A DNA stretch of 64,000 bases. Source: Escherichia phage ST0. The position numbers and the translations under genes were made by a program. A model generated the notes under the pieces. The model was not told the DNA's origin and made no database searches. It saw only the letters and a program-made list of their open reading frames with translations. The stretch lies in the sequence record MF044457. One strand, given 5' to 3'. This document shows positions 10,998 through 61,670 of the stretch, piece by piece. Positions within the stretch are counted from its first letter, which is position 1, and every line of letters starts with the position of its first letter.

Positions 10998-11000
10998 CTG

Positions 11001-11030
11001 TTTACAAGCACCACATACTGTGTTACTATC
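11001..11030 (+). promoter_or_regulatory. early promoter
   Basis: GTTTAC, about 18 bp, TACTAT. Confidence 0.5.
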
Positions 11031-32997: not shown

Positions 32998-33198
32998 ATG
33001 GCTAAGCTTTTTAAAGATGTTGAAATTGGTGAAAAATTTGTTCTGAATAATGGTCAGCAGCTTATTCGTGTAGCTTCTATCGCCGGACAAACTCATAACT
33101 GTATCGCCCCAACGTGTTGGACTCGATTCTTTATTGAAGATGACACTGAATGTTTAACTGTTGAAGAGCTTTTTGAACGTTCTGATATAGCCGAATAA
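32998..33198 (+). CDS. hypothetical small protein
   Basis: ORF track 66 aa; RBS GAGGAA. Confidence 0.45.
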   Translation: MAKLFKDVEIGEKFVLNNGQQLIRVASIAGQTHNCIAPTCWTRFFIEDDTECLTVEELFERSDIAE

Positions 33199-33200
33199 AA

Positions 33201-33230
33201 TTGTACAAACTCTTGAGAGCAGAGTATAAT
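33201..33230 (+). promoter_or_regulatory. early promoter with -10 inside a GAGAGC/GCTCTC inverted repeat
   Basis: TTGTAC, about 18 bp, TATAAT. Confidence 0.55.
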
Positions 33231-33274
33231 GCTCTCATGGATTACAAAAACATTAATCAATTGAGGAAATTAGC

Positions 33275-34064: not shown

Positions 34065-35390
34065 ATGCAATTGAATTCTCGTAATCTAAAAAGTATTATT
34101 GATAACGAAGCCTTAGCATATGCGATGTACACCGTTGAAAACCGTGCAATCCCAAACATGATTGATGGATTTAAGCCGGTTCAACGTTTTGTGGTTCATC
34201 GTGCGTTAGATTTGGCTCGTGGTAATAAAGAAAAATTTCATAAACTTGCGTCAATTGCAGGAGGTGTTGCAGATTTAGGTTATCATCATGGCGAATCTTC
34301 TGCACAAGATGCAGGTGCATTGATGGCTAACACATGGAACAACAACTATCCGTTGTTAGATGGCCAAGGCAACTTTGGTTCTAGAACAGTCCAAAAAGCT
34401 GCAGCATCTCGTTATATTTTTGCTCGTGTAAGTAAAAATTTCTATAACGTATATAAAGATACTGAATATGCTCCAGCTCATGAAGATAAAGAACACATTC
34501 CGCCAAAATTCTATCTTCCTATTATTCCGACAGTTCTTTTGAATGGCGTCTCCGGTATTGCAACCGGTTACGCAACAAATATTCTGCCTCATAGTTTTAA
34601 ATCAGTCAAAAAGGCTGTATTACAAGCTCTTCAAGGTAAAAATGTCACTAAGCCAAAAGTTGAATTCCCGGAATTCCGTGGTGAAGTACATGAAGTTGAT
34701 GGGCGTTATGAGATTCACGGAACATATAAGTTCACATCTCGCACTCAAATGCAGATAACTGAAATCCCATATAAATTCGACCGTGAAACGTATGTGAGTA
34801 AGGTTCTTGACCCGTTGGAAGACAAAGGTCTAATCTCATGGGAAGATGATTGTGGTGAACACGGCTTTGGGTTTAAGGTGAAGTTCCGTAAAGAGTACTC
34901 GCTTCCTGATGATGAAGAGCTACGTCATGAAAAAATCATGAAAGATTTTAGTCTCATCGAACGTCGTTCACAAAACATCACAGTGATTAATGAAAAGGGT
35001 AAATTAGCAGTCTACGATAACGTAGTGGACTTAATCAAAGATTTTGTTGAAGTCCGTAAGACTTACGTTCAGAAACGTATTGACAACAAAATCCTTGAAT
35101 CTGAAAAAGCGTTTAAACTTGCTTTTGCTAAGGCACACTTCATCAAAAAAGTTATTACAGGTGAAATTGTGATTCAGGGCAAGACTCGTAAAGCTTTGAC
35201 TGAAGAGCTAGCACAAATCGAAATGTATAAAGAACATGTCGATAAACTGGTAGGTCTTAACATCTTCCATATCACTTCCGACGAAGCACGTAAACTGGCA
35301 GAAGAAGCTAAAGCTAAGAAAGAAGAAAATGAGTATTGGAAGTCTACCGATGTTGTGACAGAGTACACTAAAGACTTGGAGGCACTTTGA
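34065..35390 (+). CDS. 52: DNA topoisomerase II medium subunit gp52
   Basis: 441 aa; MQLNSRNLKSIIDNEALAYAMYTVENRAIPNMIDGFKPVQR... matches the GyrA-like N-terminus of T4 gp52. Confidence 0.95.
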   Translation: MQLNSRNLKSIIDNEALAYAMYTVENRAIPNMIDGFKPVQRFVVHRALDLARGNKEKFHKLASIAGGVADLGYHHGESSAQDAGALMANTWNNNYPLLDGQGNFGSRTVQKAAASRYIFARVSKNFYNVYKDTEYAPAHEDKEHIPPKFYLPIIPTVLLNGVSGIATGYATNILPHSFKSVKKAVLQALQGKNVTKPKVEFPEFRGEVHEVDGRYEIHGTYKFTSRTQMQITEIPYKFDRETYVSKVLDPLEDKGLISWEDDCGEHGFGFKVKFRKEYSLPDDEELRHEKIMKDFSLIERRSQNITVINEKGKLAVYDNVVDLIKDFVEVRKTYVQKRIDNKILESEKAFKLAFAKAHFIKKVITGEIVIQGKTRKALTEELAQIEMYKEHVDKLVGLNIFHITSDEARKLAEEAKAKKEENEYWKSTDVVTEYTKDLEAL

Positions 35391-35466
35391 GTGCCCTAGC
35401 CTTAGGATTTCTCGGTGCAATAGCTGCACTAGTGATTTGGCTGTATTGGTTGGACAAACATGATTA

Positions 35467-35486
35467 GGGAGCTTCGGCTCCCTTTT
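35467..35486 (+). terminator. UUCG-tetraloop terminator after gene 52
   Basis: GGGAGC-TTCG-GCTCCC followed by TTTT. Confidence 0.75.
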
Positions 35487-35507
35487 GTGCATTTTTCTCG
35501 CAAAACA

Positions 35508-35536
35508 GTTTACATGTGCTTCAAACATGATATTAT
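35508..35536 (+). promoter_or_regulatory. early promoter
   Basis: GTTTAC, 17 bp, TATTAT, then AGACCTATCAAAACAAA. Confidence 0.55.
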
Positions 35537-35575
35537 AGACCTATCAAAACAAAACAACCAAATTGGAGAAATAAA

Positions 35576-35791
35576 ATGTCTAAAATGAAATTAACCCAAA
35601 ACACAACTACTCGTTTTGGTAAAGTTAAACCTGGTATGAATGCTCCCCGTAAAGCACTTGTTGAAGAATTAAATTTCTTAGAAGTTGAAATCAATTCTTT
35701 AGTGGTTCGCGGTTCAAATGGTCATCATTTAGAAAAGCTTCGTTCTAAAAAGGCAAAACTTATTGGCCTTATTAAAGAAATGAGTTTGTAA
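35576..35791 (+). CDS. hypothetical small basic protein
   Basis: ORF track 71 aa; leader and first codons near-identical to those of motA. Confidence 0.45.
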   Translation: MSKMKLTQNTTTRFGKVKPGMNAPRKALVEELNFLEVEINSLVVRGSNGHHLEKLRSKKAKLIGLIKEMSL

Positions 35792-35827
35792 ATTTTACCA
35801 GGGCTTTTGAAAAAGAGCCCAAAATAA

Positions 35828-35856
35828 AGTTTACTTTTGCTTCAAACATGATATTA
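35828..35856 (+). promoter_or_regulatory. early promoter of motA
   Basis: GTTTAC, 17 bp, TATTAT. Confidence 0.55.
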
Positions 35857-35894
35857 TAGACCTATCAAAACAAATACTAATTTGGAGAAATAAA

Positions 35895-36527
35895 ATGTCT
35901 AAAGTTACTTACATCATCAAAGCTTCTGAAAACGCTCTGAATGAAAAAACTGCTGCAATAATGGTTTATATCATTAAGAACAACTTCACCACTGCTGCCA
36001 ATGTCCGTGAAGCTCTGGAAGCGGAATACAATGCATCGGTTGTTAACTCTAACATTGGTGTATTGATTAAGAAAGGTTTAGTCGAAAAATCTGGTGATGG
36101 ACTTATAGCAACAGGCGAAGCAATGGATATTATCCAAAAAGCTGCAGACCTCTTTGCCCAAGAAAATGCTCCAGAACTTCTTCAGAAACGTAACACTAGA
36201 AAAGCACGTGGAGTTACTCCTGAAATGCATGAATTAGCAAACTTTGTTTTTGAAAATATTAAAGATAAAGTTGAAGTTAAAGAAATTGGTGAAAACCGTA
36301 GTAACTTGGAAGTTCGATTTGCAAAACGAGTTCTAGGTATTCGTCAGATCGAAATTCGTCGAAATGGTTCTCTTAGAATCTTTGCATACAACATGTCAGA
36401 AACCGAATCAAAGCTGTTTACTTCTCTTGAAAATGATGTTAAGATTAAGATCGGTGGTAAATATACTTACATTGACTTCCCTAATGTGTCCAAAGAAATC
36501 ATTACCCTTGTAACTAACGTACTGTGA
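35895..36527 (+). CDS. motA: MotA middle-transcription activator
   Basis: 210 aa; MSKVTYIIKAS...NSNIGVLIKKGLVEKSGDGLI...QENAPELL matches remembered T4 MotA. Confidence 0.9.
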   Translation: MSKVTYIIKASENALNEKTAAIMVYIIKNNFTTAANVREALEAEYNASVVNSNIGVLIKKGLVEKSGDGLIATGEAMDIIQKAADLFAQENAPELLQKRNTRKARGVTPEMHELANFVFENIKDKVEVKEIGENRSNLEVRFAKRVLGIRQIEIRRNGSLRIFAYNMSETESKLFTSLENDVKIKIGGKYTYIDFPNVSKEIITLVTNVL

Positions 36528-36537
36528 GGAATACATA

Positions 36538-36882
36538 ATGAATAAGCTGAATATTATTAACGAACTTCGTAAATGTGCAGAACCTACTCAGGAAGGATGG
36601 GATATTTGGTACCACGGGGCTTATCTTGGAACTATAGTTAAAGTTAAAGCTGGGTTATATTTAATTATTCGCGAAAATTCTGAATTCCCTAATGGAGTAG
36701 CTCCTGGCGGTATACGTAAAAACTTTATGGCAGCGATCAGTTCATTTGTTGATGCCGCTTACGAAATCTATAAAGAAGATTATAAAGAATATCAGCAGTC
36801 ACAACCGGTTATTCGTTCGATTGGTGTAAATAAACAAGCACAAAAATCTATTTGGCAACGTATTAAGGAATGGTTTAAATGA
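36538..36882 (+). CDS. hypothetical protein
   Basis: ORF track 114 aa. Confidence 0.45.
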
Positions 36883-45071: not shown

Positions 45072-48000
45072 TTATTCAATCCACTCAAATTTAACAGTTT
45101 TATTCACAGGGTCTGGAATAATGCGAACATTACCAATCCTTAAGAAATCCCTTATTGTCAAGTTTCCGATTGTTGCATTATCAGAAGGTAAAGCGCCAAT
45201 ATCAGAAGGTTGAGGAGGGTTTCCGCCATCAAATACCTGAACAAAACTCGACCAAGAATTTTTAGTTTTCTGCCATGTACGTGTCCAACGGGTTGTACGT
45301 GCTTCTGGAGTTGTTGGATAAGTAATCCAATCTTGGTAAAGTGAATCAAGTGTATTACCAAACTGAGTCAATGTACCAGGAGATTTAACTTCTTCGCCAC
45401 GTTCTAAGTATGGAAGCCCAGTCACTTCATTAGTTTTTTCAACCATTTTAAAATAACCCGGGAATTGGTTATAAGTAGCTGAATCATTAATGTCAATTGA
45501 CCAGAATCCTACAGTATCAGATGTCGGTGCACGGGTGTATAAATCAGCGGTTTTAGTGCCCTGAGAACGAATTCTCGAGTTAACAGTTAAACCACCTGAA
45601 TTTATAGTAGCACCTTTGGCAATGATTAAGCTTTCACCAACCGTTACTTGGCCGGATGCATTATTAATAGCTAAAGGACGTAATCCATTAAATCCGCCAG
45701 TCTGATCACCTGATGCAGTAAGCATAAAATAGGTATTAGCAGCATCATTACGAATAAAGAATCCGTAATTACCACTAATTGCTCTGAATGCGTTTGCACT
45801 ATAGGTTATAAATTCACCCTGTGCTGTCACCGAACGTCCAAATGTTGCCGCACCATTAGCATTCAATGTTCCGGATGCATTAACATTAATCGGCCGAACT
45901 GTACCGTTGATGCTGAAAGTAATATTACCAAGGTTATCCCGTTGTGAATAAAAGTGGTTAGATGTTTCATCACCAACTTCAAATATCGTAGCACGAGATG
46001 TATCAGAACCGCCGGCGAATTGGTTACCCCATACACGGATATTCATCGCCTGAGCAGGGTTGTTTCCAGTTTGTGGACCTTTTTCAAATATTAAGCGAGT
46101 TGAAGCACCTGTATTAGAAATAGTTAATGTACTATTAGCAGATACCGAACCACCAAACGTAGCCGTACTAGATGATACAAGAGGGGCACTCAGATTCGTT
46201 TGTTGGGTTAAGGTTAGTGAACCATTAACCGTCTGTGCAATGTCCCTACGAATGAACTGAGATGAATCTAGGCCATCTAATAAATTTGCGTCAGCAGCTT
46301 TTGCTTTTAATGGCAAGTAATTTGCCAATACACGGTTTAATTCATACGGTGATACTGCATAGCTATTTTTCTCGTATAGCTCTAAGTTTTGTGTAGAACC
46401 GACTGTATCATTACCAACGAATGTAATAGAACCGGATGAAGTTTTAACGAATCCGCGAATTGCTGTAGTAGCAGCCCATGTTGGTTCGTTCTGGACAATC
46501 CATTTTAAATTCTTAGGAGATACAGCAGTGTTCGCTGACGTTCCAGTCACAGTTTCAGCCTGAGTAGCAACCTTGATTACACCTTCAGACGTTTCAGTGG
46601 ACTTAGTCCCTAAAAGCTTTTTAGGAGTAATAAGAACATCATCTAAAGTTCCTGCATTAGATTCTGCCTGGGTCGCTACGCGAAGTGTACCACGTTGTGT
46701 TTCATTTGCTTTAGAAATATCAAGAGTATAATGGTTCCACAAGGTTCCTTCTTCAATAAGTCCGGAATCAGAATTAACACTGGTACGGTCAGAAGAATCA
46801 AAATGAGTTTTAATTTTCAGTGGAGTCGAGATACGAGTATCATCAGTTCCAGTATCAAATTCAACTTGCGTAGCAATTTCGGCTATGCCGGATAATCCTT
46901 CCGTCGCTCTCCTATCATTTAACGTCTTAGGCGTTACTGCACGTGTATAATCAGTCCCAGCATTAGTTTCTGCTTGCGTAGCAATTTCAATTAAACCAAT
47001 ACGTCCATCAGTAGAAGTTTTCTTATGTAGTGTTTCAGGAGTTACTACAGCATGAGAGTATCCAGACTGAGATTGTCCAGCAATTACTTCACTATCAATA
47101 GCTAAAATTACTGCACCTTGTTGGGCGTAAGTTGCTTTATATTGGTCAAGGGCTTTAGGAGAAATAGTTAAATTATTTACGGTTTTATTATAAACGTTAG
47201 TGCCTGCGGCCCCACGAGTTTCAGCAGGAGTAGCAGAAGTAGTTGATACATATTTAACTATACCCGATAGTGTTTCGGAACCCTGACGTGCCTGTAATTT
47301 CTTAGGTGTAATAATCGTTGTGTCATCAAGACCAGCATCGGTTTCAGTCTGAGTAGCAATTTCAGCAAGACCGCGACGAGTTTCAGTTGCTGTACGCTCA
47401 TTTAGTTTTTTAGGCGTAACAATAGTATCGTCCACAAATGATGCTGTGGAATTCTGGTTAACTTGTGCTGTTGTAGCAATTTTAGCGATACCACGTCGAG
47501 CTTCAGTTGCTGTACGATTTGCCAATGTTTCCGGAGTAATAGCAACTTCTTTAGCCGGAGTATTCTCTAAATCAACATTTGCTTGCGCTTGAGTAGCAAG
47601 AGCAATAACACCTAAACGAGCTCGTGTAGCATCAGTTCCAGCATCAACACGTTCTACAGTTGGGACGTTTTGTTGAACAACCCAATAACGTGTACCAGCA
47701 ACGGTGTCTTCGATATACGATAATTCTAATACAGGAACATATGAAGTAGTGCCATTGAATTCTAGTTCAGTAACAGAGACCCATTGAGCATCAGGTGGAT
47801 ATTCAGAACGTTTAGGGAACTGAAGCAACGCAACAGAAGAAGCAATTGTATCACCTTCGGCAGCTTTAATTTTTACGGTTTGGCCTTTACGCATGTAGTT
47901 CATTGAAATTTTAACAGTGTCACCACTCAAAATTCCAGTAGGCAGCGTAAGATTAATAGTTCCGGTTGTAGCGTTATTTGTGCCAAAAATAAGAACTTCT

Positions 48001-48947
48001 TCATTTGGACGAATATTTGAATCAGCACGGATAATACGAAGACGCGATTTCTGGTCGCCTTCCCATATACGCCATAAACTATTTGAAGCATCAAAAACAA
48101 AAAACGCGTCAGAGTCATTTCTGCCTTCGGCAATATGAGTCCCGACTTCACCAATAGACGTTGTATCATCAAATGTTTTAACAATTGTATGATACAGTGG
48201 GTTTAATTTATCTAAATCGACTAGGGTGATTATATCACCATTGTTAGCATTACGTGGAAGTGTAATGTTGATTGGTGCTGCACTAGTAAAACGACGAACG
48301 ATAAAATCATTTGCTTGTGCTTGATATGGTGTCGCAGGTGTAACAGTGATTGATTCTTTACCGTAATCAATGATATACATCTGCCACAAACGATTACTAA
48401 ACACAAACAATAGTTGTGAACGTGGACGCGTCATTAAAACTGTACGAACTTGTTCACCTCTAAAGTTTAAAATACTCTGCACAGACGCGTTAATCTGTAC
48501 TTTAACTGTCCCGGTTCTTCCACCAATATCAGCCAAAACAACAGTATCACCATCAACCGGCGCATTTGGCAACGTGAAAACCATATCATTGCCGGCCCCA
48601 GTGTTAACCGAAATAGAATCACCTGAAGAAAGTTGATAAGTCCCAGAAGAGACAGTTATCCATTGTGCATCGGTACGAACTGCACGCCATTGTAAAAGGT
48701 TAAATGCCCCGGAAGGAGACACGATATCATTTATTGCTTGATATAAACGGTTGTCATAAAGAACAACAAATCCTTTGTTATATCCACGCGTAGAATCATA
48801 TACTTGAACGGTGTTTTCTTGTACCAGGAAGTCAACGTTTACGCCATCAGTACCTACTGTACGGTCGGCTAATGCTACGTTAACAATCTTGTCGCCACCG
48901 GCGTCCAGACCGTCTTCGGCTCTGAACTTACGTTTGATGTCGGCCAT
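45072..48947 (-). CDS. 34: gp34 long tail fibre proximal subunit
   Basis: 1291 aa; N-terminus MADIKRKFRAEDGLDAGGDKIVNVALADRTV...; internal repeats of the TPKKL type. Confidence 0.95.
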   Translation of the reverse strand: MADIKRKFRAEDGLDAGGDKIVNVALADRTVGTDGVNVDFLVQENTVQVYDSTRGYNKGFVVLYDNRLYQAINDIVSPSGAFNLLQWRAVRTDAQWITVSSGTYQLSSGDSISVNTGAGNDMVFTLPNAPVDGDTVVLADIGGRTGTVKVQINASVQSILNFRGEQVRTVLMTRPRSQLLFVFSNRLWQMYIIDYGKESITVTPATPYQAQANDFIVRRFTSAAPINITLPRNANNGDIITLVDLDKLNPLYHTIVKTFDDTTSIGEVGTHIAEGRNDSDAFFVFDASNSLWRIWEGDQKSRLRIIRADSNIRPNEEVLIFGTNNATTGTINLTLPTGILSGDTVKISMNYMRKGQTVKIKAAEGDTIASSVALLQFPKRSEYPPDAQWVSVTELEFNGTTSYVPVLELSYIEDTVAGTRYWVVQQNVPTVERVDAGTDATRARLGVIALATQAQANVDLENTPAKEVAITPETLANRTATEARRGIAKIATTAQVNQNSTASFVDDTIVTPKKLNERTATETRRGLAEIATQTETDAGLDDTTIITPKKLQARQGSETLSGIVKYVSTTSATPAETRGAAGTNVYNKTVNNLTISPKALDQYKATYAQQGAVILAIDSEVIAGQSQSGYSHAVVTPETLHKKTSTDGRIGLIEIATQAETNAGTDYTRAVTPKTLNDRRATEGLSGIAEIATQVEFDTGTDDTRISTPLKIKTHFDSSDRTSVNSDSGLIEEGTLWNHYTLDISKANETQRGTLRVATQAESNAGTLDDVLITPKKLLGTKSTETSEGVIKVATQAETVTGTSANTAVSPKNLKWIVQNEPTWAATTAIRGFVKTSSGSITFVGNDTVGSTQNLELYEKNSYAVSPYELNRVLANYLPLKAKAADANLLDGLDSSQFIRRDIAQTVNGSLTLTQQTNLSAPLVSSSTATFGGSVSANSTLTISNTGASTRLIFEKGPQTGNNPAQAMNIRVWGNQFAGGSDTSRATIFEVGDETSNHFYSQRDNLGNITFSINGTVRPINVNASGTLNANGAATFGRSVTAQGEFITYSANAFRAISGNYGFFIRNDAANTYFMLTASGDQTGGFNGLRPLAINNASGQVTVGESLIIAKGATINSGGLTVNSRIRSQGTKTADLYTRAPTSDTVGFWSIDINDSATYNQFPGYFKMVEKTNEVTGLPYLERGEEVKSPGTLTQFGNTLDSLYQDWITYPTTPEARTTRWTRTWQKTKNSWSSFVQVFDGGNPPQPSDIGALPSDNATIGNLTIRDFLRIGNVRIIPDPVNKTVKFEWIE

Positions 48948-61398: not shown

Positions 61399-61613
61399 CT
61401 AAAGAACAGCATGAATACATTAAAGGGCTTATCTATGAATCTGAAATGGCGGCCATGATTTACGGGCGACAGATTCAACGATTAGAATCTTTGCCTCCGA
61501 CTAATGACCGCTTGTTAGTTCAGTCTCGTGCTAATCTGAAAAATGAATATCAGAATAAGTGGGCGGTAGCGACTAAAGCTCTTCATGAGTATATTGAATC
61601 TTTAGTAAAATAG
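61389..61613 (+). CDS. hypothetical small protein
   Basis: ORF track 74 aa. Confidence 0.4.
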   Translation: MPMTKEQHEYIKGLIYESEMAAMIYGRQIQRLESLPPTNDRLLVQSRANLKNEYQNKWAVATKALHEYIESLVK

Positions 61614-61642
61614 TTTACAAACTCTCGGGAGCAGAGTATAAT
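61613..61642 (+). promoter_or_regulatory. early promoter, near-duplicate of the one at 33201
   Basis: GTTTAC, about 18 bp, TATAAT inside a GGAGC/GCTCC inverted repeat. Confidence 0.55.
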
Positions 61643-61670
61643 GCTCCTATGGATAATTGAGGAAATCTAA

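Follow-up and report, generated by a model that had tools for sequence, protein, structure and literature searches.

Promoter early stem-loop (PeSL) elements have been described in the phages RB49 and phi1 (Arbiol 2010, PMC2839356) and in PST/T4 and nt-1/KVP40 (Comeau 2014, PMC4122927). These two papers define a PeSL as an AT-rich region with -35 and -10 elements, a Shine-Dalgarno (SD) sequence and a start codon at its 3' end, and a stem-loop just upstream; TTTACW-N17-TAYWAT is given as the T4/PST-type promoter (PMC4122927). For RB49 and phi1, PeSL crossovers were mapped experimentally in or next to the stem-loop, mini-circles were shown and reporter assays were performed (PMC2839356). Small early genes are also shuffled between relatives at the internal protein (IP) loci of T-even phages, which are bounded by T4-type early promoters with weak AT-rich stem-loops (Repoila et al. 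1994, as cited in PMC2839356 and PMC4122927). Here, we analyzed a 64,000-nt stretch of Escherichia phage ST0 (sequence record MF044457; the window), in which a promoter-bearing direct repeat stands in front of two adjacent genes, a small open reading frame (ORF) that we call ORF-X (35576-35791) and motA (35895-36527). Positions 34900-36700 of the window are 99.7% identical to Escherichia phage HX01, of the genus Mosigvirus. Our comparison makes it likely that a PeSL-type cassette pair brackets a dispensable, mobile orphan ORF (ORFan) in the Mosigvirus slot between gp52 and motA.

The initial annotation had reported a direct repeat of about 65 bp spanning the promoter, leader and first codons of the two genes. 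The repeat is real. Copies A (35502-35584) and B (35823-35903), both on the + strand and 321 nt apart from start to start, are identical in 71 of 78 columns (91%) in their best local alignment (35507-35584 against 35828-35903), well over the 80% that the annotation had set as its limit for abandoning the claim. The single indel, of 2 nt, is in the leader. Two blocks match exactly, one of 37 nt (35517-35553 = 35838-35874, TGCTTCAAACATGATATTATAGACCTATCAAAACAAA) and one of 22 nt covering the SD sequence and start codon (35563-35584 = 35882-35903, TTGGAGAAATAAAATGTCTAAA). The annotated start of copy B, 35838, was exact, the start of copy A had been placed 2 nt too early (35515 versus 35517), and the ends lay 1-2 nt too far downstream (35585 versus 35584; 35905 versus 35903). 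The extent had been underestimated, as the repeat goes ~15 nt farther upstream and takes in the -35 hexamer. Both ORF-X and motA begin with ATG TCT AAA, and the sequences are unrelated past codon 3.

This pair stands out from the other early promoters of the window. About 21 modules of early promoter, SD sequence and ATG were found on the + strand, and the other early promoters, as aligned by the repeat finder, share 62-83% mutual identity over 42-52 nt. Copies A and B reach 92% over 52 nt of promoter and are the sole pair also sharing the leader, SD sequence and first three codons. They have non-consensus positions in common too, in the spacer (TGCTTCAAACA) and the leader. A 29-nt core pattern, searched with up to three mismatches, matched at copies A and B only, with 0.00 matches expected from 100 shuffles. 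Because the two-copy arrangement is carried by ~75 independent Mosigvirus records, the repeat is not an assembly artefact.

Both copies have the anatomy of an early promoter joined to a translation start. T4 early promoters carry an UP-like A-tract, a GTTTAC -35 element, TGn and a -10 element, and T4 motA is an immediate-early gene (Hinton 2010, PMC2988021); in RB69, many early promoters (13/57) precede novel ORFs (Nolan et al. 2006, PMC1524935). Each copy in the window contains, in order, an A-rich tract, GTTTAC, a 17-nt spacer with TGn, TATTAT, a leader of ~33 nt, GGAG, 7 nt and ATG-TCT-AAA. In copy A, GTTTAC lies at 35508-35513, TGn at 35528-35529, TATTAT at 35531-35536, the predicted start of transcription at ~35543, GGAG at 35565-35568 and ATG TCT AAA at 35576-35584. 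The corresponding positions in copy B are 35829-35834 for GTTTAC, 35852-35857 for TATTAT with its TG, ~35864 for the predicted start, 35884-35887 for GGAG and 35895-35903 for ATG TCT AAA. The sigma-70 consensus is matched at 10/12 and 9/12 positions in the two copies, both with TG, and the AT-rich element of PeSLs is present as CAAAACA (35501-35507) and CAAAATAAA (35820-35828). From this consensus and the T4 precedent, both cassettes are expected to be active immediate-early promoters. The proposal of the initial annotation that the small ORF shares the motA promoter, ribosome-binding site and MSK start held, each copy being one promoter/leader/SD/ATG TCT AAA module.

A stem-loop precedes each promoter. 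SL1 (35467-35486, with its hairpin at 35467-35482; + strand) has the form GGGAGC-TTCG-GCTCCC followed by TTTT and belongs to cassette A; its predicted folding energy is -15.5 kcal/mol (z = -3.8). In PhAPEC2 (by ARNold) and NRG-P0074, a terminator is annotated at the corresponding site, and SL1 likely terminates gp52 transcripts. SL2 (35801-35820, + strand; GGGCTTTT-GAAA-AAGAGCCC; -14.5 kcal/mol, z = -4.3) belongs to cassette B and is conserved ahead of the motA promoter where the cargo differs. Its second stem pair changes from A-T through G.T to G-C across phages, a compensatory series, and SL2 may attenuate transcription or stabilize the ORF-X message. The leader is predicted to be unstructured (-2.2 kcal/mol, z = 0.25). 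A scan of 35300-36000 with the Rfam 15 covariance models gave zero matches at E up to 1.

Small polymorphisms were also seen within these elements. The window, HX01, NRG-P0074, F2, O157tp3, PTK and a20 have the SL1 hairpin as GGGAGC-TTCG-GCTCCC, and its exact reverse complement, GGGAGC-CGAA-GCTCCC, occupies the site in PhAPEC2, RB69, LF82-1 and S143_2. This flipped-hairpin polymorphism, recorded at SL1 of the window and at the corresponding site of loci L002, L014, L015 and L051, is independent of slot occupancy. The leader (35545-35560) is built of AAAAC units, of which phage p000v has one more (AAAACAAAACAAAACAACC). LF82-1 is short of one A in the leader of copy B; together with the extra unit of p000v, this suggests leader slippage.

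The initial annotation had suggested checking whether relatives carry one or two copies, and both states were found. Roughly 150 Mosigvirus-type records contain the locus; ~75 of them carry ORF-X, and about half have an empty slot with a single cassette. In the empty Mosigvirus phages, including the type phage RB69, the interval between gp52 and motA is 185-190 nt and holds one cassette and no ORF-X, and O157tp3, NRG-P0074 and others likewise have a single cassette without ORF-X. The T4 slot is empty too, but with a different promoter variant (GGTTTACAACCAAAGCATACTGTGGTACTAT). Among Dhakavirus phages, JS98 and VR5 carry ORF-X between twin cassettes. JS10, a sister phage of JS98 and VR5, has an unrelated 75-aa ORF, ORF-Y (phrog_10955), in the same slot, again between twin cassettes. 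On either side of the slot, JS98 matches JS10 at 95-100% identity, and only the sequence between the two promoters differs; on this alignment, the difference is a cargo replacement. These relatives bear out the reading in the initial annotation that a promoter cassette had captured a new gene: in them, the slot is empty, holds ORF-X or holds an unrelated ORF.

Exchange also appears to have crossed genus boundaries. JS10 and the T4-like phage ACG-C40 share a block of ~390 bp at 96-100% identity, with flanks of only 50-80%. The block comprises ORF-Y with its leader, SL2 and the JS10-type motA promoter, and runs through about motA codon 10; judged by this identity step, it is a cassette transfer across genera. 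Across 31 further IMG/VR loci, the gp52-motA interval ranged from 187 to 1558 nt and held at least 10 unrelated cargo families. The choice of query mattered for this survey: a MotA alignment retrieved 32 loci, and a single MotA sequence only 2, which were near-identical. In T4-like IMG/VR loci L023-L027 and L029-L032, the slot holds a SprT-like protein of 215-268 aa (HExxH, PF10263); an FRD2-like protein is among the other cargos, and each stands behind its own early promoter.

Substitutions typical of each genus are shared by the two copies, which have TGCTTC...TATTAT in Mosigvirus and TGCTTT...TACTAT in Dhakavirus; this indicates that they evolve in concert. Empty and occupied states are mixed with respect to flank divergence. 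F2, which is empty, differs from the window by 0.4% downstream, and LF82-1, which is occupied, is nearer to the empty RB69 than to the window.

Breakpoints could be placed inside the cassette with two diagnostic sites, the -35 flank (GTTTACATGTGC in A, GTTTACTTTTGC in B) and the leader (...AAAACAACCAAATTGGAG in A, ...AAATACTAATTTGGAG in B). All four combinations of flank and leader occur beside motA. The B/B type is found in the window, HX01 and PhAPEC2, as well as in the occupied LF82-1 with a 1-nt deletion in its B leader; B/A in NHEP10 (occupied) and F2 (empty); A/B in the empty phages RB69, PTK and pEK20; and A/A in eight empty phages. These four combinations require exchange inside the cassette. 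As read from these sites, they argue against a single ancient event followed by exchange of flanking genes without breakpoints in the cassette. When ORF-X was deleted in silico between the 37-nt cores of the window, the product matched PTK at 164/165 positions; deletion between the 22-nt SD/start blocks gave a product matching NRG-P0074 at 166/168. By these matches, both single-crossover products exist in nature. The crossover-product alleles sit on different backgrounds, with three SL1 types, and the mosaic alleles of F2 and NHEP10 need one more conversion patch. As a separate observation, HY126 and pEK20 have a Dhakavirus-type gp52 3' end, mini-ORF and stem-loop (GGAACCTTCGGGTTCC) and switch to Mosigvirus-type sequence directly after the T-run of the hairpin, an inter-genus junction at the stem-loop.

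Sequence comparison shows the repeat itself, the series of alleles, where the breakpoints lie and that the unit is mobile; by analogy with the experimentally studied PeSLs, gain, loss and swapping would proceed through homologous recombination between the repeats, possibly by way of mini-circles. In the model that we propose, host sigma-70 RNA polymerase would initiate independently at ~35543 and ~35864 right after infection, and ORF-X and MotA would be made as separate immediate-early products from near-identical promoters and leaders. SL1 and SL2 would shield each unit from upstream transcription. RegB acts with S1 on an 11-nt single-stranded site, GGAGRAYARAA; it cleaves T4 motA mRNA well, and RegB cleavage sites also occur in RB69 (Durand et al. 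2006, PMC1702504). The GGAGAAAUAAA element shared by both leaders could expose both mRNAs to RegB/S1 cleavage, as limits MotA synthesis in T4. The direct repeats of 81-83 nt, with their exact 37- and 22-nt blocks, would serve as substrates for homologous recombination. A crossover between them would drop one cassette together with ORF-X and SL2, the excised DNA presumably forming a mini-circle, and the reverse reaction would insert the unit. Partial exchanges would homogenize the copies or make them mosaic, and at the same sites cargos could be replaced or passed from one genus to another. Whatever gene arrived in the slot would gain motA-like early expression at once.

Several points weigh against this model. 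The similarity of copies A and B is in part the consensus of the promoter family, and selection could maintain that part. Ordinary recombination in the flanking gp52 and motA sequences, and not in the repeats, could explain some of the intermixing of empty and occupied states. Unlike those of the described PeSLs, the crossovers deduced here fall within the promoter core and within the SD/start block instead of at the stem-loop. A leader-orthology test against Dhakavirus and Klebsiella-phage leaders, meant to assign leader A to ORF-X and leader B to motA, gave 10/16 versus 9/15 matches and fails to polarize insertion versus deletion; because this test was indecisive and the two reactions are reciprocal, we assigned no direction. 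The promoter and terminator functions at this locus rest on consensus and T4 precedent. SL2 has no U-tract and hence is no canonical intrinsic terminator, which makes its role as a terminator doubtful. GGAGAAAUAAA matches the RegB/S1 consensus at only 9/11 positions.

The strongest of the alternatives would leave the repeat without any role in gene gain or loss. The copies would be alike solely through selection for identical regulation, that is, promoter strength, early timing and RegB sensitivity, and presence or absence of the gene would spread by ordinary recombination in the gp52 and motA flanks. The strong early-promoter consensus within the window speaks for it, as do the GGAG plus A-rich SD sequences that are frequent among its early leaders and the rampant mosaicism seen in the flank distances. 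Nevertheless, we regard this explanation as unlikely. In the empty alleles, the junctions coincide exactly with the two identical blocks, and these alleles reproduce the products of crossover in silico; the cassettes of F2 and NHEP10 are mosaic. The exchange boundaries of the JS98/JS10 and JS10/ACG-C40 pairs are at the cassettes and not in the flanking genes, and the sharing extends to the non-consensus spacer and leader.

The spacers of both cassettes contain a MotA-box core, TGCTTCA (TGCTTTA in Dhakavirus), at 35517-35523 and 35838-35844. A MotA box, (a/t)(a/t)(a/t)TGCTTtA, sits 12 +/- 1 bp upstream of the -10 element and replaces the -35 element (PMC2988021). We ruled out a MotA-dependent middle promoter, since only 7 bp separate TGCTTCA from the -10 TATTAT and the cassettes have a good -35 hexamer; for T4, no middle promoter is listed at motA. 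One further proposal is that the motA cassette is a preferred docking platform tying its cargo to the early-to-middle switch, with TGCTT(C/T)A in the spacer as a MotA operator. If this were true, ORF-X and other cargos would modulate MotA/AsiA sigma appropriation or host takeover and need exactly the expression profile of MotA, and the operator would shut off motA and the cargo once MotA accumulates, a negative autoregulation. We give this proposal little credence, and an autoregulatory MotA box was set aside in view of the spacing, the patchy conservation among lineages and the occurrence in an unrelated promoter. The motif is absent from several lineages (L025, L030, L033), and its conservation is largely confined to cases in which the entire promoter is homologous. 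The T4 motA promoter has an inverted AAAGCA at a similar offset, and AAGCA also occurs in one (at 11000) of ~19 other early promoters of the window. MotA repression goes unmentioned in the Hinton review (PMC2988021).

ORF-X itself (35576-35791, + strand, behind copy A) encodes 71 aa. Its dN/dS of 0.21-0.25 against the Dhakavirus orthologues, which share 72-77% amino-acid identity, is that of a real gene under purifying selection. The family is a narrow ORFan: a word search of 5.8 billion proteins found 8 clusters only, and a profile search of 1.84 billion representatives gave 5 matches, the only ones beyond the family being segments of long proteins with low scores. No Pfam domain was found, and the PHROG match, phrog_6200, carries no functional assignment. 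AlphaFold2 predicted a disordered basic N-terminus followed by a two-helix hairpin (helices 23-44 and 50-70; pLDDT 76), for which a Foldseek search of the PDB gave no structural match with E < 0.6. The Dhakavirus ORF-X begins with ATG AAT AAG (MNK) in its own SD context; on that account, the ATG TCT AAA (MSK) start of the Mosigvirus gene is most simply explained as a copy taken from the motA cassette by exchange.

These properties bear on the second reading in the initial annotation, a partial duplication of the motA 5' end. If that region had simply been duplicated in tandem, with ORF-X arising afterward de novo or from diverged motA coding sequence, this would account for the promoter, leader, SD sequence and MSK codons common to both genes. 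What the annotation had right is this shared regulatory region and its 9 coding nucleotides. Similarity to MotA does not extend past codon 3 (best BLASTP E = 1.1), and we rejected a partial duplication of motA coding sequence on the lack of protein similarity, the MNK start in Dhakavirus and the nucleotide divergence directly after codon 3. Purifying selection on ORF-X and the unrelated cargos occupying the same slot elsewhere leave the tandem duplication very improbable.

Slightly less probable still is that a homing endonuclease or site-specific recombinase inserted ORF-X upstream of motA and left the repeat as a target-site duplication. T4-like phages are rich in homing endonucleases that move adjacent DNA, a point also made in PMC4122927, and the slot is a hot spot. 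Neither in nor beside the slot of the window phage is there an endonuclease or recombinase ORF, ORF-X is a helical hairpin without a Pfam domain, and the larger cargo elsewhere is SprT-like, not HNH or GIY-YIG. At ~80 nt, the repeat comprises a complete functional promoter module, unlike a short target duplication, and the crossover points vary. A chance resemblance of two ordinary members of the early-promoter family is the least credible explanation and is refuted by the comparisons, since the family consensus accounts for identity at GTTTAC, TGnTATTATAGACCTATCAA and GGAG...ATG and not for an outlying pair that alone shares spacer, leader and start codons, exceeds the zero matches expected by chance, and keeps its pairing in Dhakavirus with genus-specific co-variation in both copies.

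The slot is bounded by conserved genes on the + strand. On the left, gp52 (34065-35390) encodes the DNA topoisomerase II medium subunit (PF00521, DNA_topoisoIV, E = 8e-78), annotated as T4 gp52-like in HX01 and PhAPEC2. Overlapping its stop is a putative hydrophobic mini-ORF of 26 codons with a TTG start (35387-35467, + strand; LSALALGFLGAIAALVIWLYWLDKHD*). It occupies the position of T4 motA.1 (49 aa) and is annotated in HX01 (D299_gp206), not in most relatives. On the right, behind copy B, motA (35895-36527) encodes the activator of middle-mode transcription, with PF09114 MotA_activ (1e-39), PF09158 MotCF (5e-9) and phrog_1345.

Other repeats and promoters of the window were recorded as well. 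The early promoter at 11000-11029 (GTTTACAAGCACCACATACTGTGTTACTAT) is closer to the T4 motA promoter variant than to the motA promoter of the window itself. A second promoter-like pair, at 33197-33242 and 61609-61654, is 85% identical over 46 nt at a distance of 28 kb and has a palindrome, GAGAGCAGAGTATAATGCTCTC, across the -10 element. On the - strand, an ORF of 1291 aa (45072-48947) is internally repetitive: within 46833-47669 it has direct repeats of 48-67 nt, spaced 108-375 nt apart. In size it matches the T4 long tail fibre protein gp34 (1289 aa).

The mechanism had hitherto been supported by few phage pairs. Here, a clean natural series within one genus offers occupied alleles, two empty classes matching the predicted crossover products and mosaics, together with a cargo swap between sister phages and an inter-genus transfer. 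The word motA has 0 occurrences in the 2010 PeSL paper (PMC2839356), and the gp52-motA locus was met neither in the available portion of PMC4122927 nor by literature search. Our results show that the repeat can extend into the coding start of motA, an essential regulator; a newly acquired gene would then inherit the MotA transcriptional program and probably the post-transcriptional one too. ORF-X (phrog_6200) and ORF-Y (phrog_10955) are marked as dispensable, predicted immediate-early and horizontally mobile, a profile that fits host-takeover or anti-defence factors, and the gp52-motA slot would be a natural place to insert payloads for early expression when T-even phages are engineered. The locus leaves the present picture of phage genome evolution as it was.

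Compared with known systems, the cassettes resemble T4 early promoters in their A-tract, GTTTAC, TGn and -10 element. The motA units of T4 and RB69 differ in having a single promoter and no ORF-X, the T4 unit with its own promoter variant. The leaders resemble RegB/S1 leaders in a GGAG SD sequence followed by an A-rich tract in RNA predicted to be single-stranded and differ in the incomplete match of GGAGAAAUAAA; regB is outside the window. Repeated segments at the IP loci reportedly also run into the first codons. The IP genes share a functional N-terminal targeting peptide, whereas ORF-X and motA share three codons only. As a functional analogy only, integron gene cassettes offer a fixed expression platform that takes up promoterless or self-contained small genes, releases them as circles and exchanges them; here there is no integrase and no attC/attI, and exchange would occur by general homologous recombination between promoter repeats. 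The closest counterpart is the PeSL itself. Relative to the described elements, the repeat is unusually long, reaching three codons into motA, and SL2 lacks the G-run/C-run stem of RB49-type PeSLs as well as a U-tract. As in the elements described in the PeSL papers, both copies fit the T4/PST promoter with an AT-rich tract, an upstream stem-loop and a 3' SD sequence and start codon, flank in tandem small ORFans that vary from one close relative to the next, and have the breakpoints of indels and replacements within the motif. With every sequence-level feature that defines a PeSL present in both cassettes, the gp52-motA locus provides a new case, resolved unusually well, of a mechanism known from T4-like phages.

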